A stretch of 64,000 nt of DNA from assembly GCA_964644845.1 (NCBI GenBank), contig CAZXXS010000056.1, forward strand, positions 1 through 64,000. Direction: 5' to 3'. The notes below the pieces were generated by a model that made no database searches, was not told where the DNA came from, and saw nothing but the letters and a program-made list of their open reading frames with translations. Shown here piece after piece: positions 7,405 through 30,675 of this stretch (position 1 is its first letter; each line of letters opens with the position of its first letter). Position numbers and translations under genes: made by a program. The stretch is from an uncultured Cytophagia bacterium. GTDB lineage: Bacteria; Zhuqueibacterota; Zhuqueibacteria; Oleimicrobiales; Geothermoviventaceae.

Positions 7405-7688
7405 GTTGGACCTCGCAACCAGAGAGTACGAGTCGGAGCAGTGTGCAACTGCAAATGGAAATCTCCGGCCTTGGGGCTCCAGCCTGCCAGTGTAGTCCGG
7501 CCTACCCGGGTCGGGAGCACGCGAGCAGAACCGGAACCGCAAGGGGGTTTGGGGCACGGGAATCGAGTCCCGATGCCCCTTGGGAACGGGTCTATCAGGT
7601 TGAACGCAACGTCAAAAAACAGCGACACCTGATCTGGGGGCTCCGCCAGCCGGGCAGAAACCAAGGTCCGGAAAACCTCTTTTCGGTT

Positions 7689-8825
7689 CTACCCGAGCTC
7701 TTTCAACGTTTGACGGAGCGATTTCCAGTGTTCGTCGGTCATGTAGGTGGCTGTGAAAAGGCAAATCCCTGCCGCTCCGTTCTGTACGGCCACCTTGGTC
7801 GCTTCCCGTAGCTCTGCTGGCGTAAGCATCTTGATCAGCACGCCGCTGTACAGGGGGGCCTTTCCCTTCAGAGCCTGAACGCCTTCGTGTGTTACCTTGC
7901 CAATCCAGGCTACGTCCGCGTTGTAGTACTTGTGGTACATCATCGGGTGGAAGGCATCCAGATTCCAGCTCGGCCAGTCTTGACGCACGAGACGTCGGGC
8001 AATCGAAGGTGATGGAAAAACAGCCGCTGTCAATTGCTTGTTCTTGCCGTGCGCTACGTTAACGAGACGATTGACCAAATTCGTCACGCGGTCGTACCGG
8101 TACTGCCGCCAGGCGGCATTTGCCGACGGATCCGGTAGTTTCAGAGGATCAATTCCCGTTTGCTTTTTGAACTTCTCGCGACAGACCTTACAGTAGCAGA
8201 AGTCGTACTGAGGGTACTCCTTGTCCTGAACCAGGTTGTACCTGGGTTGAATGCCAGGTGGCAGAATTACGTCCGGGTAGCGAATGTAGTCGAGGTGAAC
8301 CCCTGCGAGACCGTCGAGATCGGCCAGGCCCGAAACTTTTTTCTCGAGGTACTCAACGACTTCTTCGCGCGAAGGACAAAGCCAGGTGTAGGACGGGATG
8401 TACGGCGGTTTCTCCAGGCACGAGACCCCCTTGCGATTCACCATGAACCAGTCCGGGTGGTCCTGTTTGACCTGCTCGTCCTCGCAGCGTAGGGAGATGA
8501 TCCAGTTGTGAAGCTCCACGCCGGCGTCGCGCGCGAGTGGTACGAGCTTCAGGATTTCGTCGGGCTTGGCCAACACAAGCGCTCCGGTGACGCCGTTGTA
8601 GCGCATCTTGTCGAACAGGCGTTTCCAGCCATCCATGCCGGAAACCTGGCCGCCCGGGATCCAGGCCCAGTTCTTCAGGTTTGTTTTCACTGGCCCACTG
8701 CAGCTGTTGAGCGAGACAGCGCCCGCCGCCAAGCCTAATGTCGTCAGGCTTGCCGTGCGTAAGAACTCACGCCTTTTCATCCCGTTGCGGGAGGGATCGT
8801 GTGTACTTTTTGCGTTTCTGGCCAT
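7689..8825 (-). CDS. Tat-exported glycoside-hydrolase-like family 10 (GHL10/PF02638-type) protein
   Basis: Twin-arginine signal (RREFLRTASLTTLGLAAG) followed by a TIM-barrel hydrolase-like body. It has a conserved YCYCKVCREKF cysteine cluster. It is a paralogue of the ORF at 35526-36578. Confidence 0.6.
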   Translation of the reverse strand: MARNAKSTHDPSRNGMKRREFLRTASLTTLGLAAGAVSLNSCSGPVKTNLKNWAWIPGGQVSGMDGWKRLFDKMRYNGVTGALVLAKPDEILKLVPLARDAGVELHNWIISLRCEDEQVKQDHPDWFMVNRKGVSCLEKPPYIPSYTWLCPSREEVVEYLEKKVSGLADLDGLAGVHLDYIRYPDVILPPGIQPRYNLVQDKEYPQYDFCYCKVCREKFKKQTGIDPLKLPDPSANAAWRQYRYDRVTNLVNRLVNVAHGKNKQLTAAVFPSPSIARRLVRQDWPSWNLDAFHPMMYHKYYNADVAWIGKVTHEGVQALKGKAPLYSGVLIKMLTPAELREATKVAVQNGAAGICLFTATYMTDEHWKSLRQTLKELG

Positions 8826-8962
8826 GTTGTGCCTCCGTTCGGGCTGTTTCCGGTTGACACGTTGTCAGGAAAACAGGCCCCCGATGTTCCGGCCGTTTCG
8901 TTGGTCTGCTTGGGGTTTTCTGAGAACGAGGGAATTTAGTTGTCTCGTGCTTCGCGGGCAAA

Positions 8963-9067
8963 CGAAAAGTGAACATTCTGCATTTTTCGAGGGAATTTGC
9001 ACCGAGACAAAAGGGCTGAGCGGAACCCGACCACCGTACGGTTTGTCCCTTCAGGTGTTCACTTTCG
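8963..9067. promoter_or_regulatory. Pair of 10-bp inverted repeats (AAAGTGAACA ... TGTTCACTTT) in the upstream region of the exported GHL10 gene
   Basis: An exact inverted repeat lies at 8966-8975 and 9056-9065, 80 bp apart. The first copy is embedded in a local palindrome, CGAAAAGTGAACATTCTGCATTTTTCG. The pair sits 140-240 bp upstream of the minus-strand gene start at 8825. Confidence 0.3.
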
Positions 9068-9583
9068 TTGCTCAGGACGCCGGGCCGTCAGGGATGTCAA
9101 CAGACCCTGTGAGCTTGCAGGAAACTTCGCCCGGACGGCCGGAGGAGACTCAGGACAGCTGAGCTTCAGCCGTCCGGCGGCAGCCCGAAGCGCCGGCAGA
9201 GGTGACTCAGCGACGGGGGGCGTTGCCTGTGTGACGGCTCTTGAAATGACCGAATCCCTGATTTCGAATCACCGACACGAGAGCTTGGTCCTCGCCGCTC
9301 CCACAACGAGCTGCGAGCGGCCTTGCGGGATGAATTCTGTAGCTATCGTGCGCATCCGCCTGCACGGAAGTCTCGGAGCGCGGAGGCCTGCTGCCGCTTT
9401 CGGTTCGCGAACCTACGGCTTGTCGCCGCTTTGTTAACGCGCTCTTCGAGCCCGTGGCAAAGTCTGGAGATTCTGCACTGCACAACGGACTTCCGAGTAG
9501 GGCGAGTCCCGATGCCGGTGCTCAGCCGACGCGCCAGCGTGTGTCCCCGGAGCTGCGGCGAGTCCCGGGGGACGCAGGTAGTG

Positions 9584-11968
9584 TCAGTTCAGCTCCTCCG
9601 TGGTCTTGCGAATTTCGCGGGCGTGCGAGTAGAACTCCTCGAGATTCATCCGCCGCAGGTACACAAAGCCACGCGTTCCCCGAATCAGTGGGCTTGGGTG
9701 TTCGTTAAAGAATCGCCGACCAAGTGCCGTTTTCAGCATCTGGTACTGCTCAACCTGAATCTGTTGCGCCAGGCCACTGAACGGTCCGTCGTACTCGTAA
9801 CTTGGGAACGAGGCATCTTTCTGAGACACGAAAGCGTTGAGAAAAGCGTTTTGCAGAACAGCAAACATGTTCAACGACACGGGCACAAAGATGTTCGCCT
9901 CTGAAGGGTGGAAGCGGTACCAGACATTGCGGTAGCCGAGAACCTCGATGTCTGAACGCCCGGACTCTTTCTCCCAACGACGGAGCGCCTCCGCCACGGC
10001 CTGCAGCACCTTGTAGTGAGTGTCGGGTCCGCTGGCCTCCGGATCGAGGGCGACCGTGACGACGTCCGGGTTCACTTTGCGGAGCAGGCGCAGAATCGGC
10101 GGCACGTCGCGGTCAGCCGTTGGCTCCTCGGTGAAGATGTCGCCCTTGTAGAAACCAAGCCGGAGGTGGTGCACAGAACTGCTGTCAAAGCCCAGGTAGC
10201 CCCAGAGACAGTCCGCTTCCCACTCGCGAATCATGCCTTTGAGCTGCTGGATGTAGGGCAGATCCTTCTTACCGGGGTACTGGGTTTCGAAGTAGTTGAT
10301 CAGCTCGTCAATGCGGTGTTTCAGATTGTCGATGTCCTCTTCCTCGAAAATCTCGATCAGGTTGCGCAGAAGCCGCCGTGCTTCGCCCTCGTCCTTCATG
10401 ATGGGCCGGTCCGCAGCCACGCCGTCCAGGTACTGCCAGACGTCGCGGTTACGGCCGTTGACGTTGCTCGGATCAAAGTAGCCAGCTTTGATCAGGTCGT
10501 CAAACGCTCGCCGGCGGAGGAAGTAGCGCAGCTTCTGCAACAGAGAGAGTGCGTAGCGATTCGTTACGGCCGTAAACCCCGAGGTCATGTAGGTGAAGTG
10601 GTGTTTGTTGCTGGCTTCCCGAATGTGACGAACCGCGTAGGGCAGGTAACCGAGCATGATGTCGTCGTGGTGCGGTGCCGTGTGCAGGAAAACCGTTTCG
10701 CGTCGCAGCTTCATGCCGGTGTCGAGCTTGCTGAGCAGGCGACCTTCGATGTTTCGGACCAGAACCGGGACGTTCTTCGAGTCCTCCGGGAGCTTCTCGA
10801 GCAGAACGGACCCGCACAGGTCGTCCTGTAAATCTTCGGCAGTCAGGTCGCGTACGCGTTTTCGCTCCTTCAGGGCCACGTCGAGCACGACTTTCTCAAC
10901 CATCTCGTCCGTGAGCTGCTCGCTCTGCTTGAGCCAGCGTACGCGACGTTCGTCCAGGTATTTTGCGGCTCCACGGGTGATGAAGAACCTCGCGTTTGGC
11001 AATTTGTGAAGAGCAGTGGCCGGGTAGCGGATGTGCGGCTCTTCTTGAACCGCATCGCGCACGACTCTGGCTTTTGCCTCGCCGGCGGCAATGATGATCG
11101 CGGTTGCGTCGGGGTTAGCGGTGATGGTAGCCAGCCCAATGGTAATGACCAGCCGTTTGCGCGCGACCTCGATGCCTCCGAGGTCTGTGGCTGCGGCCGC
11201 CTGAGTCTCGTAGTTGGTCGGCGTGAGTCGAGTTGTGGAGTTGTGGTCTGAACCCCGGACGTTGAAGGCGATGTGTCCGTCGGGTCCGATGCCACCGAGG
11301 AAGAAACCAATGCCACCGAGCGCACGAACCCTTTGCTCGTAATCGTGGCACCACTGGTCCACCGCTTCGAGCACGCGTTTCTGCAGTCGCTCCAGGCTGT
11401 TCTTGGGCTGCCGGTAGCGAAGCGAAAGATCAACCTCAGCGTCCGGCCACACGTCCTCGATGTCCAGGTTGGGCGGAATGCCGATTTGGGAGCTGTCGAT
11501 TAGCAGCGCTTTCTTCGGGTCAAGGTGGAAACCACTGATGTAGAATTTGTTGACGTAGTAGTAGAAACTGTTGTGTTGGGCGGGATCGATGGGGTAAAAC
11601 TCGTCGATCTGTACGAAATGCAAACTCTGCATGTCGGGGCGAACACCCGGGTCGAGGCCGTTAGTTTCAAGGTCTTCGCGTGTTTCGGGTTCGTCCCAGG
11701 TGTCCAGGTAGTGTGTGACCCACTTGATGAAGTACTCCGGTGTCTTTCCGGTTGGTAGCGACACAACACCACCGGGGTTGGCCTGAACCCACTCCAGAAA
11801 ACGCAACGCTGTGAGCTTGCCCAGGCTGGGGAAGTTGTCAACGATGATTGTTCCGATTTTCTCAGTCGGAGGGTAGTAGAGATCAAAGCCGCTGCGCTCT
11901 AAAGCGATCTTTTCGACCTGCGAGTGAACAGCAGGCGTCTTGGTGGCACGCTTTTCTGTTCGTGGCAT
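9584..11968 (-). CDS. Long-form glucosamine-6-phosphate deaminase (NagB-like N-domain) fused to LmbE/PIG-L-like deacetylase domain
   Basis: The N-terminal region has NagB-family motifs (LPTGKTPEYF; GIGPDGHIAFN). The C-terminal half carries FLHTAPHHDDIMLGYLPY, an HxDD zinc-hydrolase motif of the LmbE/PIG-L fold. The track ORF extends to 12259. I placed the start at M98 (ATG 11966-11968), just before the deaminase domain. Confidence 0.65.
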   Translation of the reverse strand: MPRTEKRATKTPAVHSQVEKIALERSGFDLYYPPTEKIGTIIVDNFPSLGKLTALRFLEWVQANPGGVVSLPTGKTPEYFIKWVTHYLDTWDEPETREDLETNGLDPGVRPDMQSLHFVQIDEFYPIDPAQHNSFYYYVNKFYISGFHLDPKKALLIDSSQIGIPPNLDIEDVWPDAEVDLSLRYRQPKNSLERLQKRVLEAVDQWCHDYEQRVRALGGIGFFLGGIGPDGHIAFNVRGSDHNSTTRLTPTNYETQAAAATDLGGIEVARKRLVITIGLATITANPDATAIIIAAGEAKARVVRDAVQEEPHIRYPATALHKLPNARFFITRGAAKYLDERRVRWLKQSEQLTDEMVEKVVLDVALKERKRVRDLTAEDLQDDLCGSVLLEKLPEDSKNVPVLVRNIEGRLLSKLDTGMKLRRETVFLHTAPHHDDIMLGYLPYAVRHIREASNKHHFTYMTSGFTAVTNRYALSLLQKLRYFLRRRAFDDLIKAGYFDPSNVNGRNRDVWQYLDGVAADRPIMKDEGEARRLLRNLIEIFEEEDIDNLKHRIDELINYFETQYPGKKDLPYIQQLKGMIREWEADCLWGYLGFDSSSVHHLRLGFYKGDIFTEEPTADRDVPPILRLLRKVNPDVVTVALDPEASGPDTHYKVLQAVAEALRRWEKESGRSDIEVLGYRNVWYRFHPSEANIFVPVSLNMFAVLQNAFLNAFVSQKDASFPSYEYDGPFSGLAQQIQVEQYQMLKTALGRRFFNEHPSPLIRGTRGFVYLRRMNLEEFYSHAREIRKTTEELN

Positions 11969-12905
11969 TGAAGAAATCCCCGTGCTTGATCTGCGTTTTC
12001 CGTTTGATCCAGCGAAATTTAGCGAAACCTGTCTTAAGGCCCAAGAGGAATCTGGGTGGGTTCCACTGGTTTTAGCGCGCACGGCACCGGTTTTGCTGAA
12101 GAAAGGTTTACGCATTTGTAGCAGGGATGCCGCCGGTCCCGGCGGAAAGCAAAGCAAGGGGCTACGGGTCGAGTACACACCGGGACCAGGTGGTTTTCGG
12201 TGGTGCCAGCGGCTCGCCTGTGGCCCTGAGGGCGGGGAACGGGTGCCTTTGAACGCCACGCAGAACGGCGCTCAGTCGGTGTCGCTCCGACGCCAGCCAC
12301 CGGCGACGGCAGAGTTTCGGCGAGCGTTGATGTGTGGAAAAACCTTGCTTTCTTTGGTAGTTGTCGGTATCTTTGCGAGAAATTTAGGGAACGTGTTCGA
12401 AATCTGCGTCTCCGGTGCGAAAGTGGATCTCACGCAAGGAGACAGGCGTAGGTGGACCGGTGGGCTTGTCAGCGCAATTCCTCTGAGATCCGCTGCCACG
12501 ATTCGCACCGACGTACGTTCGGCAGGCCAACCGGGTTTTGACAGGTACCGGTGCGCGCTGGCAGGGCGAACCGAGGCTGCTTGCACGGATTCCGACAGAG
12601 GCTCGCGAATCGTGCGTGAACTTGAACCGGCGGTGTCCGGGGTCACGCTGCTGCCTGCTCCTCCGCGAGCTGCTTCGGGCAACCGTGGGACAGGTCATTT
12701 TGCGGATGTTTTCAGGTCTTGCGGTGCAAGACGGCGGTTTCTCCGACCACGCTGCTGCGGGCGGAGGTACGCCCCGCGACAGGCGAATCGCGCAGGAAAC
12801 GCGTCCGGACTGAGCCGAGTTCTGCAGGGAGCGAGCCCCTTAGGCGGCGAGTCGCGAAGACGAAAGGCAAATTTCTGGAGGCCCTACGCAGGGAGGACGT
12901 GATTG

Positions 12906-13892
12906 ATGATCTGGCTCGTTGCTCTTTTGGTTCTGGTGGCAGGTGTTGTTGCGCTTGAATTTCGGGTCCGCCAACCCGACCAGCTGGTCCTCACCGAAAA
13001 GGGCGGCAGGGTTGTCCTTCGTAAGGGGCGATTTTACCCACGCCACTTCAGCTTGTCTGTGCCGGCGGTCGTCAGGTCCATTTCGCTGGAAATTCCGGCA
13101 GAGGCCAAAGGCCACGTACCGGTAAAGGCAAAGATTCTGGTGGCGGTAGCCCCGGACCCCAGACGCGTTGAGGCGCTGGTCAGGGTAGGAGGGTGGCAGC
13201 GGAACGCGGCCGAAGCGGCAGCGGCGGCTTTGCAGGACAGCGTACAGGCCGTGGTGCGTGCTCTGGTTGAGAAACGGGAAATCGATGCCCTCTCGACCGG
13301 GGAGCTGGACCGTTCGTTTCGCAACGAGTTGGAGAAGGCGGCAGCGGACTACGGGCTTGCAGTTGTGTCTGCGCACGTGCTGGCGGTTGAACCCGAGGAC
13401 TCAGAGCTGGCCGAAGCGATGGCGCGGCGTGAGGCGGCCAGGATTCGCGAAGAAACGGAGCGCGCAACGCAGGAGGCCCGCGTCGCCGAGGCCAAAGCAC
13501 GTTTCGCCGCGGAAGAAGCGATCGCCGAGACGGAGCACCGCCTGGCTCTCAAGCGCCTGAAAATGCGGTCGGAACAAGAGAGGCGCGAGGCGGAGCTGGC
13601 GCGAATCCGGGTAGAGGAAGAAGCGGAGCGGCGCCGACTCCAGCTGCAAGTTGACCGCGAAGAAGTTGAACTCCTGGCAGGCCACCCTGAGTTGCTGATT
13701 CTCACCCCCCAGGTGGTGCGGCTTGCCGAGGCCAGTCAGACCTTGCGGAACGCCCGGACGGTTGTTTCCCTCGGTGCGGAAGTGGGTGAAGCGGCCCCGC
13801 TTGTGGAGCGTCTGTTGAGTCTGCTTCAGGCCGGAAAAAGCGGTGGTGCGGCATCCGAACAGGAGAGCGGCGAAGCAAAGGGGAGCGCGTAA
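12906..13892 (+). CDS. SPFH/band-7 (flotillin/stomatin-like) membrane protein
   Basis: N-terminal TM helix (IWLVALLVLVAGVVAL), an SPFH core, then a long Ala/Glu/Arg-rich coiled-coil tail (EAARIREETERATQEARVAEAKARF...). GGGAGG lies 10 nt upstream of the ATG at 12906. Confidence 0.75.
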   Translation: MIWLVALLVLVAGVVALEFRVRQPDQLVLTEKGGRVVLRKGRFYPRHFSLSVPAVVRSISLEIPAEAKGHVPVKAKILVAVAPDPRRVEALVRVGGWQRNAAEAAAAALQDSVQAVVRALVEKREIDALSTGELDRSFRNELEKAAADYGLAVVSAHVLAVEPEDSELAEAMARREAARIREETERATQEARVAEAKARFAAEEAIAETEHRLALKRLKMRSEQERREAELARIRVEEEAERRRLQLQVDREEVELLAGHPELLILTPQVVRLAEASQTLRNARTVVSLGAEVGEAAPLVERLLSLLQAGKSGGAASEQESGEAKGSA

Positions 13893-13898
13893 TTTCCG

Positions 13899-14900
13899 GT
13901 GGTGTCGCAGATCCTGACAAACTCTTCCGCTGACGTGGACCTGTTTGCACTCAGGCCCTTCGCGGCAGCAAAGGTCTCCGAAATCAGCGAGGCGACCGCC
14001 CTGTCGCGCGTTCCTCCGCAGGAGCGGGTGAATTTCCACATCGGTAATCCGGTTCAAGATGCGCGCTTGATTTTGGCCTACAAAACGCTGCTGCTCGGGC
14101 GAGCGAACGGTGAAGCGCTGGACTTGAGCGATTTGCAGACCCTGGCCGGTGACCTCGACATCGAGCCCCGTCTGACGCCTTTTCTGGAACTTGTGCTTCG
14201 CTCCGTAGACCGGAGTGTTACGTACCTGCCGCGTGGTGGCTTTTCGCGGCACGACCCAGGGCCGCTCGCTCCGCTGGTGCGGAAGTGGCTCCTGGAAAGG
14301 CAAGAAGAGCCGTTGTCGTACGACCTGGGTGTGGACAGCGGTCGTCGGGAGCTCACATTTGCCAGCGGCGGCCGGTGGGAAGCACTTCGTGTTCTCTTCG
14401 CGACGTTGAATGAGCACCTGGTGGCTCGACCGGCGGTTGTGCTGCTCTGGGGACTCGATCTGCCGAGACACCTGCTTACGTTCGAAAATCTGCGACTGGT
14501 GCGTCTCGACGCGTCAGCTTCGGTTGCAAATGCGTTACGGGAAAGCCTGGAGTCGGCGTCAACGTCGCCGCATTTTGTCTTGTTGGGCGCAGTGCCACCG
14601 GAGCGAGAACGTCGGCGACTGCGTTTTCTGGCCCTGGAAAGGCCCGTTCGGATCATCGAAACGAGCAACGCTCCCAACCATCTGTCGCTGGCTCGCGAGG
14701 CCGGTTTGGCGGAGCTCGTTCTCCGCATTTTGACACCCGACTTTTTCTTGCCCCAACTTGGCGCCCTTTCGCTCGCCGTTGTCCTGGGCAACAGCGAGTT
14801 GCTCACGGCGTTCGAGAAAATGCATTTTCAGCTCAAAGGCACGCCTTCGGGGCCGGAAATCGAGCTCTTGGCTTTCGCGCTACAGCACCCCGATTTGTTC
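13899..14900 (+). other. Domain: degenerate class-I aminotransferase-like N-terminal domain of the giant ORF
   Basis: VNFHIGNPVQD matches the N-terminal LxxGxP motif. RELTFASGGRWEALRVLFATL matches the TxGxxEAL motif. No SxSK lysine was found in this domain. Boundaries are approximate. Confidence 0.4.
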
Positions 14901-17900
14901 ACCCGACAACCGTGGGAACCAGCGGTCTGGAAAGCTCCAACTGAGACGGTTGCCGCCAGCGTGACGGACGCGACCGTACCGGCCGCAGAAAAGCTGGCCC
15001 TCGCGTTGAGTGGCTACCTTGCTCAGGTTGAGGCGTTTGCGACGCGAGCCTCTTCGTTCGTTGATGCGGTTTCACAGCGAGTGGAAGAAAGGGCGCAACG
15101 TGTTTCCCAGAGCGGTGAAGCCGTGTTCAGTCGAGCCTCACGGCCTTTCGTTGGCGGACGGGGCCACTTTGATCCTTTGGGGCACGCGACATTCGCGGAG
15201 TTGCTGGAGCAACTGGCAAACCGAATTTCGGATCCCGAGTGGGAACGGGACCTGGAAGCCGCTTTTCTCGCGGCTTTTGTTGCGCAGCATCCGGAGTACG
15301 AACACGAGGCTTGCTTTGCCCTCAGCGGTTCGGCGCGAACCGCCCTCAGCTTGCTGGGATTTCACGCGGGAGTCTCCGATGTAGTTGTGCCGGACTTGAG
15401 CTGGACGTACGAAAACTGTTTTCCGAATGTCACCGCGGTGCCGCTTTCGCCCGAGCTCGAGCTGGACGTGGCGAAAATCCGGCGGGCGGTTCGGGAAAAG
15501 TTGGCCACCGACGCCAACTGGAAAGAACACGGCGCGGTTGTTCTGAACAATCCCCACAATGCTACGGGGAAAGCGTTTCGGGAAGACGCGGTCGAAGAGC
15601 TCCTGCTGTGGGCGCTGGAAAATGGCGTCCGGGTTGTGGACGACCTGTCGTACGAAAACGTTGGTCCCTGGGATCACCTCTCTGGGCCGCGGACTGCACG
15701 CCAGATTGCCTCGAATCTCGTACGAACCGGTCGGTTGCCTCGCGAGGCGTTGAAGAATCTGGTTACGGTGCACTCGCTGTCTAAAACAGACTGCTTTGCG
15801 GGGGCACGGCTTGCCGTGGTGGAAATTCTCGACCGGGACTTGCGGCAGCGTTTCGCTGCCGTGGCGAAAACCATTCGCCCGAATCATCTGGCCATCTTGC
15901 TGGCTTACCTGTTTTACCGAAACCCACCGGACCGGGTCCGCAGCTACTGGTTACTGCGGAACCGCGTGCTTGCTGAAAGGATGACGGCGCTGGAAGAGGC
16001 TGTGCGGGAGTTGCCCGTCGAGCGCAACCCGTACGGACTCCGAGTGGTCAGACCCAGAGCCAGCATGTACCCGCGTCTTGAGGTCCAGCGTCTGCCGAGC
16101 GGCGTGTCGCTGGACTGGATTGCCACGAGTTTGGCTAACCGTGGAATTGGCTTGATTCCGTTCTCCACTTTTGCACGCACAGCGCAGGGCTTCGATTTGG
16201 CGCACCGGTCGTTTCGTCTGACGCTCGGTGGGGGCGATTCTACGACGGCACTGCAGCGAAAAATGCGCCGCACGCTGATCGACCTGAACCGGGTGCTCGG
16301 TGACGAGGAGAGCCGGTACAACCTGCGTGTCCCGCGCTCTACGGGAGTGGCCGTGGCGTCAGTGCGTTCCGGCCACGTGGAAGAGCGCTGGAACGAGGTG
16401 GAAAAGCACCTGGCCAAACGGGTCGACGTACATTTCAGAGACCTTCGGCGACGATTCGGCAAGGACTTTGGGCATCACCAGCGGGCAGAGTTTCTCGAGT
16501 CGTACGTGCCGAAACGCCTGGGGCACTTCCGACGGATGCTGGACGCAGAGCTGAAGGTTGAGGAGTTGCTGCGCGGCACTTCGGAGGCACAGCCCCGGGT
16601 AATTCTTGAGCTTCTCGAATCGGAACTGCAAACGCCCACGCTTTCCGACAGGAGAGAGGCATTTCGGCGGCGGCTGTTCGATCGAACGGTCCACCCGACC
16701 CAGGTTTACTCCGTTCAGGTCGACGTCCAGGCACGTCGGCTCGTCCACCGTGTCGCGGAAGGGCAGGCTTTCGACGCCCGCCAGCTGAACACGCTGGCGC
16801 GCGAAATGGTCCGGGAGTTTCTCGGCGAGAACGTACCCGTGACGTCCAAGGCCGAAGCGCGCGAGCTTGTGTGCGACCTTCGCACGCTGGTGCAGACCGA
16901 AGACTACCTGCGCTTTCAGTTCGGTGAGGAAGAACCGCTTCTGCTTTCGTTCTGGGGCGATTGGGACGGCAGCACCAGACCTTCCGGACAGGGACACCGC
17001 CTTTCGGCAGCGGCCCTGCTTGAGGACGTCCGGCAGTTGGCTGCTCTGCTCAGGACTGCGACGACGTTAGGCGTGGACCTGGCCGTTCCGACGGAAGTGG
17101 CTGAGGCTGTTCAACGCCTGGAGGAGCACAACCAGGCGTTCTGGCGACTGCTCGACGACATCACCGATCTCACGAGTCAGCTGGAGCAACGGTACCTGCG
17201 CGTGCTACCCTTCGACGTGCGCACGGGCGCGTTTCGACGGCTTGGGATGCGGCTCCGGCTCGCCCGCGATCCTCTGGCTGCCCTCTGGCAGCACAACGAC
17301 CGCCTGGAGCGCCGCATGCTGAAACTGCGCCGCGACCGACGAGCGAGCCTGGAGTTTTACCTGAAGCTCGATCAGGCGCTGCGAGAGGTACTCGCCCGAA
17401 ATCTCGACCGTTTGGAGCCCCTTCTCAAGCACCCGGCTGGGGCCCGCGTTCTGGCGCGGTACAGGGATGTTCTGCGTCGCTTCGCCCTGACACCACGGAT
17501 CCACCAGCGGATCATCGTAGCGCACGATCAGTTCGCGATTGACACCACGGTGCACAACCTGGTGGAGATCAACCGACTGGCTGTGCGTTACGGTGTGCCA
17601 GGAATGATCTTCGGAATTCAGATCAGCATGTCGACAGATCCGGAGGCGCTGGTTGCTCTGGACCGCAAAATCCGTGCGGAGCGTTTGGCGGCGCAACGCA
17701 GACATGGCGGTCCTCAGGCCCCAGCGGTGTGGGTGATTCCTTTGTTCGAAGATCTCGATTCGGTCCACAATTTGGACAAGTACCTCGACCGCGTGTGGGA
17801 TTACGCTGTCCAGAGTCGCCGGGCCGGCCAACCGGCAGCTGACCGGTTCTCGGAAATCATTTGTGAGATCTTTGTGGCCGGTTCAGATCTGAGCCAGCAA

Positions 17901-19562
17901 GTGAGTCAGCCAGCGGGAGCAGCTCTCTACCGGGAAGCGAAGTACCGCGCTGTACGCTGGCTTTCGCAGCACGGTCTTTCGAACAAGGTTCGAATCAAAC
18001 TGGGCAGCGGTGAACCGGCCCAGAGGCAGGGCGGCTACTACGACCGTGAATCGGGTCTCCCGGCTGTGCTCACGACACGGTCTGCTCGAAAGCGCCTGGC
18101 GGAGCACCTCAACGATGCTGAACAGAAGGCAGCCGAGCGAGCCCGAACCCCTTTGCAGGGCATCCTGGCTGGAGGCGAGTTCCGCACTTTCCAGAGCAAC
18201 CTGGCGGAGCGTTTGCGTCACCTTTCCGTAGACGAGCGGGCACGCATTCTTTTTCACGTTCGGGAGAGCCAGCGCTTTCACGAAACAGAGCTTCGACGTG
18301 CTGCTGCGGCACTCCAAAAGACACGTCTGCGCTTCCTCGAACGGGGTTTGCAGGAACTGGAACTGCTGACCCTTGGTCGTAAGGACGAAGTCTACGACAG
18401 ATTTCTGGAATCTGTGCGTGAGCATTTCCGGCAGATCCTCTACGGCCGGCCGGAAGATGTGGTTGGTCTGCACGTGATTTCCTACTTTGTGTCCAGGGCC
18501 ATTCCGGCGCTGCGCGATCGACCGGTAGTGCGCCCGAGCCGCGAGGTGGGGCAAGGCAGAGAGCGAGAAATCGTGGGACGACTGGCTCAAACCCTGCCGC
18601 TGGCGAAACACGGCAGCTTGCTCCGAGCCATCGGCCACAATCGCGCACAAACGGTGATTCTGGGGGTCAACCAGCTCACCACTGGCCTTTTCCGGGCCTT
18701 GCAGCAGTTCGTGGAATCGGCGTCCAGTCCCGCGGAGGCCACCCAGATTCTGGAGGAGCGGGTTTTCCCGAATCTCCCTGTCAGAGACATCTTGAACACA
18801 CTCCGGCTCTACCACGATCCTCACCTAACCTGGGTGAGACGACTCGAAGCGGCCTTTCCGGCCGGGAACTCTGCCTTTGTGGCCCTGCGCGAAGACAACG
18901 ACGCCCTGGAAACCTTCATTCCGGCTTTGCAACGGGAACTGCTGCGGCAAAACGGGCTTCTGCTGGAGGGATTCCTGGAAAATGGGCGCGTGAAGCAAGC
19001 TGTGCTTCCGGCGCTTCGTCCGGACCTGGCCGTGCTGCTTCAGCGAAACCTTTTCAACACGGACCCAGCCGGTTTACTGGCAGAGGCCAGGAGCCCGGTG
19101 GACGCGTCCTGGCGCCGGAAGGTTGAAGCGATGCTGCGGATGCGGCAACGGGTCTTCGCCTGGCGGGCTGAGATTTGGAAGATCATCGAGGAGCCGATTC
19201 GTGGACAGGTGGAAAGCTTCGTCGGCCTTGCGCTTGCCATCAGCAAGCTGTCGGAGGGGAAATCCGTTGCGGATGTTCCGCTGGTGGCCGCCCCAGCGGA
19301 CGTTTACCGCCTCGGCTCGCAAATTGCTGGCTTGCTGCGCCGCACCACCGACGACGCCATGCGGCAGTTCTTGATTGCGGCCGTGCAGTACTTGACCCAC
19401 CTGCCAAAGACGGCCACCGAAGTTCCGCTGGACGTCATCCGGGCTCTGCGCGACGTGGAACGAATCGTAAAAATCGAGGGTCAGGCCCTGACAGAGGAGC
19501 AGTTGGCCAGGGTTCGATTCTACGTTCTCCAGATTGCGCGGCTTTGCAAGGAGAACGGGTAG
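13899..19562 (+). CDS. Giant multidomain protein: degenerate aminotransferase-like domain + class-I PLP aminotransferase domain + divergent PEPC-like domain
   Basis: Single 1887-codon ORF. The GTG start sits 7 nt after the SPFH stop. It contains a central class-I PLP aminotransferase domain, a degenerate copy at the N-terminus and a C-terminal domain related to phosphoenolpyruvate carboxylase (PEPC). Domain motifs are listed in the three sub-features. Confidence 0.6.
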   Translation: MVSQILTNSSADVDLFALRPFAAAKVSEISEATALSRVPPQERVNFHIGNPVQDARLILAYKTLLLGRANGEALDLSDLQTLAGDLDIEPRLTPFLELVLRSVDRSVTYLPRGGFSRHDPGPLAPLVRKWLLERQEEPLSYDLGVDSGRRELTFASGGRWEALRVLFATLNEHLVARPAVVLLWGLDLPRHLLTFENLRLVRLDASASVANALRESLESASTSPHFVLLGAVPPERERRRLRFLALERPVRIIETSNAPNHLSLAREAGLAELVLRILTPDFFLPQLGALSLAVVLGNSELLTAFEKMHFQLKGTPSGPEIELLAFALQHPDLFTRQPWEPAVWKAPTETVAASVTDATVPAAEKLALALSGYLAQVEAFATRASSFVDAVSQRVEERAQRVSQSGEAVFSRASRPFVGGRGHFDPLGHATFAELLEQLANRISDPEWERDLEAAFLAAFVAQHPEYEHEACFALSGSARTALSLLGFHAGVSDVVVPDLSWTYENCFPNVTAVPLSPELELDVAKIRRAVREKLATDANWKEHGAVVLNNPHNATGKAFREDAVEELLLWALENGVRVVDDLSYENVGPWDHLSGPRTARQIASNLVRTGRLPREALKNLVTVHSLSKTDCFAGARLAVVEILDRDLRQRFAAVAKTIRPNHLAILLAYLFYRNPPDRVRSYWLLRNRVLAERMTALEEAVRELPVERNPYGLRVVRPRASMYPRLEVQRLPSGVSLDWIATSLANRGIGLIPFSTFARTAQGFDLAHRSFRLTLGGGDSTTALQRKMRRTLIDLNRVLGDEESRYNLRVPRSTGVAVASVRSGHVEERWNEVEKHLAKRVDVHFRDLRRRFGKDFGHHQRAEFLESYVPKRLGHFRRMLDAELKVEELLRGTSEAQPRVILELLESELQTPTLSDRREAFRRRLFDRTVHPTQVYSVQVDVQARRLVHRVAEGQAFDARQLNTLAREMVREFLGENVPVTSKAEARELVCDLRTLVQTEDYLRFQFGEEEPLLLSFWGDWDGSTRPSGQGHRLSAAALLEDVRQLAALLRTATTLGVDLAVPTEVAEAVQRLEEHNQAFWRLLDDITDLTSQLEQRYLRVLPFDVRTGAFRRLGMRLRLARDPLAALWQHNDRLERRMLKLRRDRRASLEFYLKLDQALREVLARNLDRLEPLLKHPAGARVLARYRDVLRRFALTPRIHQRIIVAHDQFAIDTTVHNLVEINRLAVRYGVPGMIFGIQISMSTDPEALVALDRKIRAERLAAQRRHGGPQAPAVWVIPLFEDLDSVHNLDKYLDRVWDYAVQSRRAGQPAADRFSEIICEIFVAGSDLSQQVSQPAGAALYREAKYRAVRWLSQHGLSNKVRIKLGSGEPAQRQGGYYDRESGLPAVLTTRSARKRLAEHLNDAEQKAAERARTPLQGILAGGEFRTFQSNLAERLRHLSVDERARILFHVRESQRFHETELRRAAAALQKTRLRFLERGLQELELLTLGRKDEVYDRFLESVREHFRQILYGRPEDVVGLHVISYFVSRAIPALRDRPVVRPSREVGQGREREIVGRLAQTLPLAKHGSLLRAIGHNRAQTVILGVNQLTTGLFRALQQFVESASSPAEATQILEERVFPNLPVRDILNTLRLYHDPHLTWVRRLEAAFPAGNSAFVALREDNDALETFIPALQRELLRQNGLLLEGFLENGRVKQAVLPALRPDLAVLLQRNLFNTDPAGLLAEARSPVDASWRRKVEAMLRMRQRVFAWRAEIWKIIEEPIRGQVESFVGLALAISKLSEGKSVADVPLVAAPADVYRLGSQIAGLLRRTTDDAMRQFLIAAVQYLTHLPKTATEVPLDVIRALRDVERIVKIEGQALTEEQLARVRFYVLQIARLCKENG
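15250..16300 (+). other. Domain: class-I/II PLP-dependent aminotransferase domain with intact catalytic motifs
   Basis: Motifs found: ALSGSARTALSLLG; VVVPDLSWTYE; NNPHNATGKAF (NPxNPTG-like); VVDDLSYENV (Asp and Tyr); HSLSKTDCFAGARLAV (SxSK...GxRxG with the PLP lysine); and a C-terminal FRLTLGGG arginine. Confidence 0.65.
17500..19562 (+). other. Domain: phosphoenolpyruvate carboxylase (PEPC)-like C-terminal domain, divergent
   Basis: Blocks collinear with PEPC signatures:
- IIVAHDQF aligns with TAHPTE (His retained).
- IQISMSTDPEALVAL aligns with YVISMAxxxSDVLAV.
- VIPLFEDLDSVHN aligns with VxPLFETxxDLxN.
- EIFVAGSDLSQ aligns with VMxGYSDSxKD (Lys absent).
- RIKLGSGEPAQRQGG aligns with FHGRGGxxGRGG (arginines largely absent).
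- The protein ends in -ENG where PEPC ends in -NTG. Confidence 0.5.
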
Positions 19563-19613
19563 GCCATCCTGGATCCTTGGGGGTTGCACCGCGAGTTCCA
19601 GCCTCGCAAGCCC

Positions 19614-19642
19614 TTTGACAAATCCCTCTGCATTCCTTATCT
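19614..19642 (+). promoter_or_regulatory. Candidate sigma-70-type promoter (TTGACA-N17-TATCTT) for the GntP permease gene
   Basis: TTGACA at 19614-19619, a 17-nt spacer, and TATCTT at 19637-19642. This is about 50 nt upstream of the ATG at 19693 and its GGGAGG ribosome-binding site. Confidence 0.4.
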
Positions 19643-19692
19643 TCGCTAAACGTTGGCTGAGGCTACGCGTACCGCGACGAGGGAGGCACGAG

Positions 19693-21012
19693 ATGCTGAC
19701 GGTTGTCGGTCTGGTTGTGGTCGTGGCACTCATCATTCTTGCCGCCACCAGGTGGAAGGTTCACCCGTTCCTTTCGCTGTTGATCGCCGGTGTAGTCATG
19801 GGCTTCCTGGGTGGCCTGGATGCTTCCACGACGCTGGCAAAGCTCACCGAAGGTTTCGGCAGCACTCTGAAGGCCATCGGGATTGTCATTGCTTTTGGTA
19901 CCATCATCGGTACGTTTTTGGAGCGGAGCGGCGGTGCCGCCACGATGGCCGAAAGCGTGCTTCGTGTGGTCGGTGAGAGACGAGCACCTCTGGCCATGTC
20001 GATTACGGGATTCATCGTTTCGATTCCTGTTTTCTGTGACTCGGGTTTTGTGATCTTGTCGGCGCTGAATCGGGCTCTGAGTCGTCGGACGGGAATTTCT
20101 CTGGCTGTGCTGGCGGTGGCGCTGGGAACGGGACTGTACACGACACATGTTTTCGTGCCGCCTACACCCGGGCCGTTGGCTGCGGCTGCCACACTGGGGG
20201 CCGATGTTGGCCTTGTGCTGTTGCTCGGTCTTTTGGTCTCGGTCCCGGTTGCTGCGGTTGGTCTTGGTTGGGCGCTTTTTTACGCCAAACGTTTTCGGAT
20301 CGAGCCTGGTGCGGCGGGGCAGTCCTCGACCAGCTCGGCTAGACCTTCGGCCAGTTTCGCTTTTGCACCCATCGTGGTGCCGATCCTGTTGATCGCTCTG
20401 CGTTCGGTTGCGGACTACCCTGCGCATCCCTTTGGCAGTGGGCTTGTGAAGGCGAGTCTGGACTTCATTGGCCACCCTGTGATCGCTTTGCTGGTTGGTG
20501 TGGGGTTGGGCTTCAGCCTCGCACGCAGGTCCGCAGGCGGTAAGCAGCTGGGCTGGGTTACCGACGGACTCCGGGACGCGGGCGTGATCATCTTGATTAC
20601 GGGCGCGGGTGGTGCATTCGGCAACGTGCTACGCGCAACTGGCGTGGGGCAAACAATCGGAGAGGCCGCTGCGCACTGGCACCTGGGGCTTCTGCTCCCG
20701 TTTGCAATTGCGGCGCTTCTGAAAACGGCTCAGGGCTCGTCAACCGTCGCCATCATTACAACATCGGCGCTGATGGTACCGCTTCTTCCTTCACTTGGTC
20801 TCGATTCCGAGCTTGCCAAGGCACTGGTTGTGCTGGCCATCGGCGCGGGCTCGATGACGGTGTCGCATCTGAACGACAGTTACTTTTGGGTTGTCGCGCA
20901 GTTTTCGGACATGGACACGGCCACAGCGCTCCGGGCCCACACGCTGGCAACTCTGGTGCAGGGACTGGTCGGTGCCGGGACCGTGGCGTTGTTTGGGGCG
21001 GTGCTGCTCTAA
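19693..21012 (+). CDS. GntP-family (gluconate:H+ symporter-type) permease
   Basis: A 439-aa polytopic membrane protein with GntP-like N-terminal helices (MLTVVGLVVVVALIILAATRWKVHPFLSLLIAGVVMG) and a duplicated-domain layout. GGGAGG lies 7 nt upstream of the ATG at 19693. The track ORF begins at 19534 with a non-membrane leader that I excluded. Confidence 0.7.
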   Translation: MLTVVGLVVVVALIILAATRWKVHPFLSLLIAGVVMGFLGGLDASTTLAKLTEGFGSTLKAIGIVIAFGTIIGTFLERSGGAATMAESVLRVVGERRAPLAMSITGFIVSIPVFCDSGFVILSALNRALSRRTGISLAVLAVALGTGLYTTHVFVPPTPGPLAAAATLGADVGLVLLLGLLVSVPVAAVGLGWALFYAKRFRIEPGAAGQSSTSSARPSASFAFAPIVVPILLIALRSVADYPAHPFGSGLVKASLDFIGHPVIALLVGVGLGFSLARRSAGGKQLGWVTDGLRDAGVIILITGAGGAFGNVLRATGVGQTIGEAAAHWHLGLLLPFAIAALLKTAQGSSTVAIITTSALMVPLLPSLGLDSELAKALVVLAIGAGSMTVSHLNDSYFWVVAQFSDMDTATALRAHTLATLVQGLVGAGTVALFGAVLL

Positions 21013-26089: not shown

Positions 26090-29000
26090 TCACTGCTCCG
26101 GATACGGTGGCATGTAGGGTGGGCGGGGTGGAAAAGTTTTGGGTTCTTTCTCGATTTTCTCCAGGATGACCTCGATTGCTTTCTCGAGCTGCGGGTCCCG
26201 GCCCTTCACGACCAAATCTGGACGGTTGTCCACGATGATGTCCGGATCCACACCGTGATTTTCGATGACCCATTTCGAATCGAGGCCGTAGATTGAGAAC
26301 TCCGGCACGGTGACGTAGCCACCGTCAAGCAATCTGAGGTAACCGCGAATGCCACGCACGCCGCCCCAGGTCCGCGTGCCAATGACAGGACCGAGTTTGT
26401 ACTTCTGGAAGTAGTACGGGAAAATGTCCCCGTCCGACGCCGAGTAGTGGTTGCAAATCGCGACCAGGTGGCCGTGAAAAACATTCTCGGGAATTGGGTG
26501 ATCTGCTGCGTTCCGACTCATGCCCATCCCAACGAGCACCCGGCGCAGGCGTTCCAAGATCAAGTAATCCACAAAACCGCCGCCGTTGTACCGGACGTCA
26601 ATGATGAGGCCCTTCTTGCGGATCTGGGGGTAGAATTCCTCGATGAACTCGTTCAACCCGCGCGAACTCATGTCGGAAAGGTAAATGTAGCCAACCTGGC
26701 CGTTGGTCGCGTTTTCGACCTTTTTCCGATTGGTTTCCACCCAATCCAGAAGATGCAGCTCAAACTCACTGCCGATCGGTTTCACAGTTGTCGTCCACGA
26801 GCCGTCCAGCGTAGGTTTGCTGTTCAAAGTCAGCTCGACATTGACCCCGACTTTGTTTTCAAACAGGCTGTACGGGTTGGTTGGCGCTTTCAACTCGACA
26901 CCGTCCACGGCCAAAATGTAGTCGCCGACATGGGCTTTTACGCCTGGCTCGGTAAGTGGTGAGCGACGCTGCTTTTTCCAGTTCGCTCCCCGGTAAATCT
27001 TGGCAATCCTGTAGTAGCCGCTTTGGGGATCGAGCTGGAGATCGGCGCCGAGAAAACCGACCGGTGTGTGCTCAATTTCGGGGTAATCACCACCGCCAAC
27101 GTAGGTGTGCGAGTTGCCGAGTTCTCCCAGCATTTCGCCGATAATGTAGTTCAGGTCGTACCGGTGAGCTACGTACGGCAGCAGCACTTCGTAGCGGCGT
27201 TTCATGGCTTCCCAGTCCACACCGTTCATTTTCGGGTTGTAGAAGTAGTCGCGTTCCAGCCGCCAGGCTTCGTAGAACATCTGCCGCCATTCCTGCCGCG
27301 GGTCGATCTTTACCTTCATGTGCGACAAGTCCAGTTTACCGTCGCCGATCTTCTTCTTGCCCTTTCCCACGTCGATGATGCCGTAGATTTTTCCACTCTT
27401 GTAGATCAGTTTGTCCAAGGTCGGGGCAATGTCGAAGGCATCCACGGGCGACAGAATGACCTCGTCCTTTTTGTCTTTGAGATCGAAGCGATGCAGGGCG
27501 GATTGCTCGCCCGGCAGTTTGCCATTCATTCCGCGAACGGGCACAGTGCGGTAGAAAACCGCATCGGCTGTGACAGCAAGACCGGCGATGTTTGCGGGTT
27601 TGATGGGTAGTGCAACAGCGCGGGTAGTGATGCCCTCGAAATCGATGTGGATTGGTTTGGTTTCTTCGGCTTTCTTGGCCGTTTTCCTCTTGGTTGTTTT
27701 CTTAGAGGTTGCGTTGTTTTTCTTTTCGGTTTTCTCCGGGACCTCGTCGCTTTTTGGCGAAAACGGCGAGGTGCTGTCTGCTTGCAAGGTCACCAGATAG
27801 ATGCCAGCCGTCTTCACGTTGGCGTAGTTTCCGTCGAACTCACCCAGAATTGGGTTGATGTTGCGGTTCGAGATGAAGTACATGTAACGGCCCTTGGGGT
27901 CGAACATGGGGCCGTAATCGTTGGTGAATTCGGTTGTCACGGGCCGAATTTTGTGATCCTCCACAGACCACAGGTAGATCGTGTAGAAACCGTTTTTACC
28001 AGCTTTGGAGTAGGCCAACCACCGGCTGTCCGGCGACCATCTGTAATCCCGAATTTCCCACCAAATGGTGCTGTCGACGAAGGTGATTTTGCGCGTTGGC
28101 ACATCCAGCACCCAGAGGTTGTGGTTCTTGTCCGCAAAGGCGATTTTTTTCGAGTCGGGCGACCAGACGGGCTGGAATCGAAAGACCTTCCCGTTGGTCG
28201 TCAAGCGAATCTCCTTGCCACCTTTCTGTGGGCGCAGGTACAGTTCGTCCTCGCCGCTGGCATCCGAGACGTAAAGAATCCATTTGCCGTCTGGAGACCA
28301 CGTGGGGTACTTTTCGTGGACACCAGAAGTCCGCGTCAGATTCCGCGTGGCTCCTTCTTTGGCTGGTACGGTGTAGATGTCGCCACGGGCTTCGAACAGG
28401 GCTCGCTTGCCCTTCGGAGAAAGCTCGAAAGACCTGATGCTTTTACTGGCGTCAACCCAGTGCGGCTTGGCGTACAGATTCTCACTCGGAAGCAGCACGT
28501 CCACTTTGTGGACCCGTTCGGTCCCGAGGTCCAGCAGGTAAAGGGTGCCGCCGTTTTCGAACACGATTGCCTTGTCGCCAATGCTTGGCCAGTTCACATC
28601 GTACTCTTTGAAGTGCGTCAGTTGCGTCGTTTGGCCCGTTTTGATGTCGTACTTGTACAGGTTCATCCGTTGCTCCGGGCCACGGTCAGAGCCAAAATAA
28701 ATCACGTCACCGTGCCACATTGGGTAGGTGTCCGTGCCAACCCAGTCCGTGATGCGTTTCACCGTGTTGTTTGGGAAATCGTAGATCCACACGTCCTGGG
28801 CCATGCCTCCTTTGTAGTGTTTCCAGGTGCGAAAATTGCGGAAAATGCGGTTGTACGCGATCTTGTTGCCGTCCGGAGAAAAGGAGGCCAGACCTCCCTT
28901 TGGCAGCGCAAGCTGCTCTGGTAACCCCCCTGTAACGCTTACCTTGAAGTAACGGCCAAACCAGTCGTTGAATGTGGAGCGACGGGACAGGAAAAGGATG

Positions 29001-29392: not shown

Positions 29393-30675
29393 TCGACCCT
29401 CCTGCAGGTTCAAACCCAAACAGACCGATTTTGAGCACTACGGACGAAGTGTTTTTTGGGTACGTACCTGAGGCCGTCCGACCAATTTCTTGTTGAGCTT
29501 ACCGCCGGAGCTGGTCGGTTTGGCGTGCCGTGCCTGTGCAGTGTCTCCACACAGTGGGGACAAAAGGCGCATTCAGACCGCCGGTGGTCCCAATGCAAAT
29601 AGGGGTAAGTTGGTGTGCAACGCTGTGCGGAGGAACGGTGTTGTCCCTTGGGTTTTGTCTGAACGAGTTCAAAAGAACTCAGGTCAGGACGGGCGGAGGT
29701 CGTGAAGCTTGAGGTGCAAGAACAAGATGCGGACAGGCGTCGTCACTTGAGTTGAAGTAAGGCACGTTTCGCTTCCCTTGTTCCGACAGCGTTTTTTCCC
29801 AGCGTGAGTGTCCCGAGCGGAACCGCTCGTCTTACGCGCCAGCGTCCGCAAAGGTTTCCGGCCGTGGGCAGAGTAGTGTGACGCGGACTCGGACGGGGGC
29901 CCTGTTGTGTGGTCGGGGGCTCGGTGAAAAACGCTTTCCGGCGTTTGCGAGGAGAGCGGCAGGGTTGGGTGGAGGGCTTTTGGTCGGGCGCCGTAAGGGT
30001 GTCTGGCGCCACCAGCAGAAGACGGCATCTCCCGCCGAAACGCGAGTGGGAATCCGAAGATCGGGCCGGCGCGTACGGATGGCGGTCCGCCGTGGCCCGG
30101 TGGGAAGCCCGAAACGAGTATGCTCAGGGGAGGGGAGTGCGAATGGATCGTGAATAACGGATGGCCAACGGCTATTCTTGAGTTTTACAGAGGACTGAAA
30201 TGGTGAGGTCGGCCTTCGGGTTGGGGTGAACTTGGGTGGCGAGGAAAGGAAACTGCGGATTTCTTGGTTACTTAACCGTTTCAGATGTTGGCAGAGGGAG
30301 AAAAAACTTGCGCAATATCGTTCATTTTCGTAAAATTGGTCCAGCTTCCTGGAGGGCCTTTCTTAATCCTGCCTTGCAGTGGACGAGAACGGTTTCGGAG
30401 GCGAACAGTGTGCGAGTGGTACCAGGTAACTCGGTGTCCGAAGAACGCTGTGCCGCAACGTTCTCCGAATTCCCAAGTGTTTCTCTCCCATGATCCTCTC
30501 CTTGTAGTTTTCGATCAGTAAAGTTCAGGTTGTCTTGCTGCGCTGCCCACTGAGGGCAGGCGGCAACACGGCCAAAAACAGTTTGCTGAGCCACGAAGTC
30601 ACTCAATCACAGGCCCGGAGAATCACGTTGGTAGAGGGGTTGACAACGGGAACCGAACAAAATGAGGGACGAACC

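Follow-up and report, generated by a model that had tools for sequence, protein, structure and literature searches.

Phosphoenolpyruvate (PEP) carboxylase (PEPC) is a textbook enzyme for which two structural classes are recognised. The locus described here raises the question of whether a protein region that resembles PEPC, but in which the best-known catalytic residues are replaced, is an active enzyme or the remains of one. The region lies at nucleotides 17500-18060 of a 64,000-nucleotide (nt) stretch of contig CAZXXS010000056.1 from an uncultured Cytophagia bacterium (hereafter the window, to which all nt coordinates refer unless another locus is named). A sequence-only reading had described it as a PEPC-derived domain that had lost the canonical Lys/Arg motifs, had kept the histidine of TAHPTE and had changed chemistry or become a pseudo-enzyme or regulatory module. 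Our analysis confirmed that observation in part and supported its interpretation in part. The flagged segment falls within a single open reading frame (ORF; 13899-19562, + strand) that encodes a giant protein, and it is the core of a PEPC-like module at residues ~901-1887. By homology and by fold, this module belongs to the PEPC superfamily. We propose, with a probability of roughly 45%, that it is a deeply divergent member of that superfamily which has kept its catalytic competence, acting on PEP to give a 2-oxoacid that is then transaminated.

The giant protein has a mass of ~210 kDa, and its conservation profile, based upon 67 orthologues with ~50% overall identity in which all residue conservation reported here was scored, revealed three conserved blocks. 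These are an N-terminal domain (N1, residues 1-350), an aminotransferase domain (450-800) and the C-terminal module (900-1887), with variable linkers at residues 351-450 and 801-900 (Table 1). All segments of the window protein were collinear across the 82 loci that were fetched, and one ORF of 1,842-1,906 aa (~1,870) was present in 66 of the 71 loci with a complete upstream region, on which ground we rejected stand-alone homologues of 770-800 aa together with a split operon. Short database versions are contig-end truncations, as in locus L002, which begins inside the gene. Four loci (L001, L014, L067 and L080) carry the giant gene in two to four ORFs, the pieces of which are still collinear, and these breaks are probably assembly frameshift errors. 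Together with truncation at contig ends, such breaks may have given rise to the many 700-1,300-aa 'versions' of the giant protein in databases.

Table 1. Features of the window that are discussed in the text, with their counterparts in E. coli PEPC and in archaeal-type PEPC (PepcA) and their conservation among the 67 orthologues
Feature	Coordinates (nt)	Strand	Match or counterpart	Conservation
Membrane-anchored SPFH/Band-7 gene	12903..13892	+	PF01145, E 7.7e-10, 39.5 bits against a cut-off of 23.6	
Giant ORF, 1,887 aa: N1 domain, aminotransferase and PEPC-like module	13899..19562	+	Single ORF	
N1 domain, aa 1-~350	13899..14948	+		Conserved, with invariant residues
Class-I/II pyridoxal phosphate (PLP) aminotransferase domain, aa ~451-800	15249..16298	+	PF00155; NPHNATG (551-557), SxSK	
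PEPC-like (beta/alpha)8 module, aa ~901-1887	16599..19559	+		
TVHPTQ (930-935), H932, after beta1 (927-930)	16686..16703	+	TAHPTE (E. coli H138); TQHPD (PepcA)	H932 invariant
WGDWDGSTRPSG (WGDWDGSxRP), after beta2 (1016-1021)	16953..16988	+	WMGGDRDGNP (E. coli); IDFEGKLTP (PepcA)	10 of 11 specified positions invariant; G1020 in 66/67
TPRIHQ on beta3 (1195-1202), R1200	17490..17507	+	R396 in DIRQ (E. coli); R82 in TPRI (PepcA); TPRI identical in 3odm/PepcA by profile alignments	R1200 invariant
IIVAHDQF, not the catalytic-His motif	17511..17534	+		H1209 is Gln in 47/67
ISMSTDPEAL, beta4 (1239-1243)	17622..17651	+	ISMAKTPSDVL (E. coli); VPM (PepcA)	
PLFED, beta5 (1278-1283), E1284 putative metal ligand	17739..17753	+	E506 in PLFET (E. 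coli); E165 in PLVED (PepcA)	P, L and E invariant
AGSDLSQQ, beta6 (1323-1327), D1330 putative metal ligand	17877..17900	+	D543 in GYSD (E. coli); D202 in ARSD (PepcA)	A, G, S, D, S and Q1333 invariant; L1331 in 66/67; Q1334 in 63/67
KLGSGEPAQRQGG, beta7 (1365-1369) and Gly-rich loop (LGSGEPxQRQGG), R1376	17997..18035	+	R587 in FHGRGGSIGRGG (E. coli); R246 in LGCGSLPFRG (PepcA)	K1367, G1369, G1371, E1372, Q1375, R1376, Q1377 and G1379 invariant
RTFQS, beta8 (1428-1431)	18183..18197	+	VTEQG (E. coli); FTFQS (PepcA)	T1430, Q1432 and S1433 invariant
LRDRPVVRP, post-barrel, R1541	18510..18536	+	R699 in GSRPAKR (E. coli); NRDR (PepcA)	R1539, D1540, R1541, P1542 and R1545 invariant
LLRAIGHNRAQT (LRAI), post-barrel, R1576	18618..18653	+	R713 in LRAIPW (E. 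coli); PRAI (PepcA)	R1576, A1577, I1578, H1580 and Q1584 invariant
C-terminal ...ENG	19545..19559	+	...NTG (PEPC); ...SIG (PepcA)	Terminal Gly invariant
Tricorn-type protease	26090-29419			
TonB-dependent receptor with CarboxypepD_reg domain	30535-33576			

The relationship to PEPC was established by profile comparison. The only domain that curated models recognised in the giant protein was the class-I/II aminotransferase at residues 451-779. When 1.84 billion representatives were searched exhaustively by HMMER with the profile of the family, 215 proteins only were returned, which indicates that this profile does not reach ordinary PEPCs. The tail of that list held five proteins of 626-1,038 aa (P0259, P0262, P0263, P0266 and P0269; E 1e-18 to 1e-22), all annotated 'hypothetical protein', which define a sister family with at least one member from Patescibacteria of the candidate phyla radiation (CPR); a gene of this family lies at 6892-10008 of locus L103. 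Two of them scored above the PF14010 gathering threshold of 25 (P0259 with 32.8 bits and P0266 with 27.7 bits), and P0259 also matched TIGR02751 (E 7e-11, 41.6 bits, against an equivalog cut-off of 146). The sister family is homologous to the window module along its whole length (hhalign probability 99.9%, E 4.5e-33, 786 columns) at ~22% identity, and has in common with it the motifs TFHPSQ, WIDFDGAKRP, PLFE, AGSD, KLGTGE..FRQGG, RDR and RAI. Its proteins are stand-alone (940-1,040 aa) and are found without an aminotransferase, N1 or SPFH neighbour, whereas the window module is fused, and they retain a Lys (GSDxSK) where the window family has Gln.

When module and sister were merged into one profile, local hhalign comparison with PepcA gave a probability of 95.1% and an E-value of 3.4e-8 over 419 columns (window residues 1194-1725 against PepcA 75-517). 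The full-length Clostridium perfringens PepcA gene used here was taken from metagenome contigs and is 100% identical to the stretches of 3odm. The sister family by itself matched PepcA at 32.1% (E 4.8e-4, 276 columns), the merged profile matched E. coli-type PEPC at 5.8% (E 0.0066, 121 columns) and the control comparison of E. coli-type PEPC with PepcA reached 40.4% (E 2.9e-4, 88 columns). By this measure, the new family is linked to PepcA more strongly than the two validated PEPC classes are linked to each other. A search of the PDB with the merged profile (hmmsearch) found 3odm at E 1.9e-4 and no other relevant match, and hhalign against E. coli PEPC was not significant with either the single sequence or an Enterobacterales PEPC profile (at least 81% identity). 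The sequence-only reading had allowed that the similarity to PEPC might prove statistically insignificant; this seemed to be so by curated models and was reversed by the sister and merged-profile comparisons, so that the hhalign match to PepcA gives the proposed PEPC-derived domain a statistical footing.

The predicted structure was in agreement with this. A model of residues 901-1887 (pLDDT, the predicted local distance difference test, 85.1; pTM, the predicted template modelling score, 0.85) was much better than a model of residues 1101-1887, which misses beta1 and beta2, and this improvement identifies the supposed 'linker' at residues 901-1100 as the first quarter of the PEPC barrel. The sister-family alignment likewise runs upstream of residue 1101 into that supposed linker. 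Foldseek returned PEPC for all of its top 49 matches, and the model contains eight beta-strands with a conserved motif at the end of each. As modelled, the module is predicted to have the (beta/alpha)8 fold with helical surround that typifies PEPC, and the same three-dimensional structure as archaeal-type PEPC. We regard module and Patescibacteria sister as a deep lineage of the PEPC superfamily, the third to be recognised, in the window family with a new conserved multidomain architecture, and with an activity that is predicted.

To locate the active site, a collinear map of 11 motifs was drawn across the window protein, PepcA and E. coli PEPC, the sequence of the last being checked against 1fiy, and all 11 were present in the module (Table 1). 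Residues that are common to both validated PEPC classes (H932, R1200, E1284, D1330, R1376, R1541, R1576 and G1887 in window numbering) were invariant in the orthologues, and we take the catalytic roles of the matched E. coli residues to be those assigned in the work of Kai and Izui. The pairing of WGDWDGSTRPSG with IDFEGK of PepcA lies on the best local hhalign path and is not significant alone (E 0.27). The Gly-rich loop of KLGSGEPAQRQGG was modelled with low pLDDT, which would fit mobility of this loop. The strings quoted by the sequence-only reading are accurate, as translation of 17499-18062 reproduces IIVAHDQF, ISMSTDPEAL, PLFED, AGSDLSQQVS and KLGSGEPAQRQGG. The equation of IIVAHDQF with TAHPTE did not hold, given the frequency of Gln in place of H1209. 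A histidine has been kept all the same: this is H932 of TVHPTQ, which lies 270 residues upstream, beyond the flagged stretch.

The reported loss of canonical Lys and Arg residues holds against the bacterial/plant-type enzyme, in which K546 corresponds to Q1333 and R581 to S1370 of the window protein, while H579 corresponds to L1368 (Leu or Met among orthologues). It does not hold against active PepcA, which is also without them. When E. coli PEPC was aligned as a control with PepcA of C. perfringens, an active enzyme, K546 paired with M205, H579 with L238 and R581 with C240, so that Q1333, L1368 and S1370 stand at the places of these same three PepcA residues. Since K546, H579 and R581 are absent from an active PEPC, they are class-specific rather than universal catalytic residues of PEPC. 

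These comparisons bear directly upon the two readings in which the module would not be a PEPC-type enzyme. One is that the likeness to PEPC is convergent or due to chance, the module being a generic TIM barrel of the PEP/pyruvate superfamily, kin to pyruvate kinase or to citrate-lyase-beta-like enzymes. The lack of a significant direct sequence comparison with bacterial PEPC would suit this reading, but it is scarcely credible in view of the 419-column match to PepcA, of sister-family members above the PF14010 threshold and of 11 collinear motifs that include the PEPC-specific post-barrel RDR and RAI and the C-terminal Gly. The other, raised by the sequence-only reading, is a pseudo-enzyme or a regulatory or scaffolding module, in which case the aminotransferase alone would be active. 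The lack of a Pfam PEPC match and the replacement of K546, H579 and R581 of bacterial PEPC can be cited for it. However, an active PEPC has these three residues replaced as well, the His that was relied upon is not conserved while another, invariant His occupies the proper position, and the putative metal ligands, this His, four Arg and the Gly-rich loop are invariant across phyla at ~50% identity, which indicates a constrained active site. Orthologues had been named as a check, if any existed; they do exist, and the supposedly degraded motifs prove to rank with the best-conserved positions that the family has, which argues against a pseudo-enzyme. This alternative is therefore very improbable, and the conservation pattern suggests that the active site of the module is in all probability intact and enzymatic.

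What the module makes is less certain. The conserved scaffold consists of H932, the arginines R1200, R1541 and R1576, the acidic residues E1284 and D1330 and, in the Gly-rich loop, R1376. In E. coli, R396, R699 and R713 are the arginines that bind the phosphate of PEP, and E506 and D543 the ligands of Mn2+/Mg2+. By analogy, the module would bind PEP and a divalent metal, make pyruvate enolate and release a 2-oxoacid. The product would most likely be oxaloacetate, formed by carboxylation with bicarbonate, and the fused aminotransferase, in which Lys629 is intact, would convert it to aspartate, giving an overall reaction of PEP + HCO3- + amino donor -> aspartate + Pi. We put forward this sequence of carboxylase and transaminase tentatively, at rather less than even odds. 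Coupling to transamination is favoured by the constant fusion and by the invariant catalytic residues of the aminotransferase. Weak hints come from genome context: the genome paper of the cultured host Melioribacter roseus lists no PEPC at the PEP-pyruvate-oxaloacetate node (PMC3534657), and an AspC-like gene is found downstream of the giant gene in nine Ignavibacteria loci, with PEP carboxykinase (PEPCK) after it in L002. 

Several observations weigh against it. Neither the window protein nor its C-terminal part taken by itself gave a PF00311, PF14010 or TIGR02751 match, with E-values of up to 10 allowed, and the window family alone reached a probability of 11.9% against PepcA (E 0.0025, 419 columns). 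The residue map around beta1 and beta2 derives from motif likeness and the strand positions of the model, not from a residue-level structural alignment. E. coli K546 is linked to bicarbonate binding, and no positive charge is evident in the window family at this position (Gln) or at that of the Arg in the PepcA motif ARSD (Gly). Many invariant Gln/Glu residues are specific to the family (Q935, Q1203, Q1333, E1372, Q1375 and Q1377) and hint at a different second substrate. The best matches of the aminotransferase domain are a kynurenine aminotransferase, C-S lyases and aspartate aminotransferases (AspATs) about equally, which gives no substrate signal. Finally, M. roseus already has pyruvate carboxylase and PEPCK, and with these two enzymes a PEPC is not obviously needed.

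Some of the same observations would be explained if the module were an active PEPC-fold enzyme on PEP and metal of which the second half-reaction has changed; this is the main alternative, and we consider it unlikely yet deserving of weight. PEP might be hydrolysed to pyruvate, from which the aminotransferase would then make alanine; the enolate might attack an electrophile other than CO2; or the substrate might be another phospho-enol or 2-oxoacid, whose partner the PLP domain would supply or consume. An invariant Gln in place of K546 and the Gly at the ARSD Arg favour such a change, as do the invariant Gln/Glu of the Gly-rich loop and of the positions after beta1 and beta3, the Lys retained by a sister family that is without the aminotransferase, other anaplerotic enzymes already present in the hosts and the fact that a PLP enzyme and N1 are obligatorily fused to the module, which to our knowledge is the case for no PEPC. 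Against it, every residue common to the two validated classes is kept, the absence of K546, H579 and R581 is alone no sign of new chemistry because active PepcA also does without them, and the gene context, with no conserved metabolic neighbour, offers no alternative substrate. In its boldest form, the module would be no carboxylase at all and would perform a new type of reaction on the PEPC scaffold. A single polypeptide would then join the metal-bound enolate of PEP, or phosphate transfer from PEP, to the PLP chemistry of the fused aminotransferase-fold domains, perhaps with the SPFH protein as organiser at the membrane, and the product would be other than oxaloacetate or aspartate. This would explain the invariant change of Lys to Gln, the loop rich in Gln, the obligatory nature of the fusion and the presence of pyruvate carboxylase and PEPCK in the hosts, but we regard it as unlikely. 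The carboxylase that feeds a fused transaminase is the reading that we retain, with the reservations given above.

The family is widespread. With the C-terminal 787 aa as query, 157 unannotated homologues were found at ~50% identity, and a scan of one genome per species placed the family in at least 342 species-level genomes from at least five phyla, the host groups being Ignavibacteriota/Melioribacteraceae, Calditrichota, KSB1, Chloroflexota and Acidobacteriota (Bryobacterales/Solibacteraceae). Cultured hosts include Melioribacter (M. roseus), Rosettibacter primus and Caldithrix abyssi, and one Calditrichota locus (L003) was 95% identical, which points to that phylum as the probable source of the window. 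The homologues are named 'hypothetical protein' throughout in their sources, and our literature searches found no paper describing this giant-protein family. The window family and its Patescibacteria sister constitute a further deep branch of the PEPC superfamily that has gone undetected by curated models and has been annotated as hypothetical; CPR genomes, in which the sister occurs, are usually assumed to encode a minimal central metabolism. If the module is a carboxylase, it would provide an unrecognised CO2-fixing anaplerotic route that feeds aspartate directly and is missing from metabolic reconstructions of the host phyla. If it is not, the PEPC scaffold would have adopted a new chemistry. 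A practical lesson is that every validated class of a family, and not the best-known one alone, should be consulted before catalytic residues are called 'missing'.

The fused aminotransferase domain was well supported (PF00155, E 5.3e-13, 49.3 bits against a gathering cut-off of 19.7), although it fell far below every NCBIfam equivalog cut-off. Its PLP-binding lysine, K629, is encoded at nt 15783-15785 and is invariant, as are N554, D582, Y585, S628, R637 and R773. Against the PDB, the profile of the domain matched BNA3 (3b46) at E 7.7e-10, followed by AspB, PatB, YbdL and AspATs. Compared with class-I PLP aminotransferases (PF00155; 3b46, AspB 3ezs and the Thermus and Pyrococcus AspATs), it has NPxNxTG, D..Y, SxSK, GxR and the C-terminal Arg, all invariant, but it lies inside a 1,887-aa polypeptide and is too divergent for a substrate to be assigned. 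All orthologues conserve the N1 domain, which had no Pfam match in the 10 that were searched. Its invariant NFHIGNP, YxPRGG and SGG..E recall class-I aminotransferases, with no PLP lysine evident, and comparison with the aminotransferase domain by hhalign was not significant (probability 0.9%). N1 may be a degenerate, Lys-less half of an aminotransferase, with the real domain as its pairing partner.

Directly upstream of the giant gene, an SPFH gene ends in the window with its stop codon 6 nt before the giant-ORF start, and an SPFH gene stood directly upstream in 70 of the 82 loci, across phyla. The SPFH protein has an N-terminal hydrophobic helix (MIWLVALLVLVAGVVALEF) and a Glu/Ala-rich coiled-coil tail; a membrane-scaffold protein is here coupled to a metabolic enzyme that looks soluble. 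A defence-system reading of this pair was rejected, as PADLOC gave no match for the SPFH or giant protein among its defence-system models. No other neighbour was conserved in the fetched loci, including the GntP, HAD and aldo-keto-reductase genes of the window. In nine Ignavibacteria loci, a canonical AspC-like aminotransferase gene lies directly downstream of the giant gene, and in L002 it is followed by ATP-dependent PEPCK (region 2509-5372 of L002/L073). This AspC-like neighbour may connect the giant gene with the PEP/oxaloacetate/aspartate node, or may reflect lineage synteny only.

Elsewhere in the window, the listed ORF of a GntP-family permease (19534-21012, + strand) has its first 29 nt in common with the end of the giant ORF. 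Its Pfam match and the orthologue in L003 both begin near residue 52-56, from which we conclude that translation probably starts near nt 19690. The ORF at 9584-12259 (- strand, 890 aa) contains a weak, sub-threshold stretch resembling glucosamine-6-phosphate isomerase/6-phosphogluconolactonase (E 3.7e-4) and shares 76% identity with a protein of locus L008. None of the loci had a counterpart of the overlapping ORF at 11940-12902 (+ strand), which probably does not represent a gene. The region 23816-46407 has content typical of an organotroph and includes, besides the protease and receptor of Table 1, a second aldo-keto reductase, DUF6599, a protein with a type IX secretion system (T9SS) tail, DUF4838, an alpha-L-fucosidase, an MFS/POT transporter and a GH38 alpha-mannosidase.

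The module was also compared with the known classes of PEPC. The bacterial/plant-type enzymes (PF00311; E. coli 1fiy/1jqn, maize and Flaveria 3zge) are similar to it in size and also have a long insertion between beta2 and beta3. Their H138, R396, E506, D543, R587, R699, R713 and C-terminal Gly are all matched in the module, and ISM..P..L and PLFE(T/D) are nearly identical. However, the module lacks the signature of this class (TAHPTE, GYSDSxKDxG and FHGRGGxxGRGG), with K546 replaced by Gln, H579 by Leu/Met and R581 by Ser; TAHPTE has become TVHPTQ and WMGGDRDGNP has become WGDWDGSxRP, and the module showed no evidence of the allosteric sites of these enzymes.

The mechanism and classes of PEPC have been described, the archaeal type being a free-standing homotetramer of 55-60 kDa monomers (PMC8100219). 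With that type (PepcA or atPEPC; PF14010, TIGR02751; 3odm from C. perfringens) the module, taken with its sister family, is homologous over most of the PepcA length, and TPRI, PL(F/V)ED, A(G/R)SD, LG(S/C)G..P..R.G, (R/F)TFQS, RDR, RAI and the terminal Gly are identical or nearly so. PepcA resembles the module, too, in being without K546, H579 and R581 of E. coli. The module departs from it in size, at ~990 aa against 537, with ~170 aa of helices inserted between beta2 and beta3 and a helical C-terminal region that is longer; in TVHPTQ against TQHPD, in the Gly at the place of the ARSD Arg and in its Gln-rich family-specific invariants; and in never being free-standing, since unlike PepcA it is fused to the aminotransferase and N1 within a 1,887-aa protein and linked to an SPFH gene. 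Of the two validated classes, the module is closest to archaeal-type PepcA (PF14010) in its motifs and to the bacterial type in its size.

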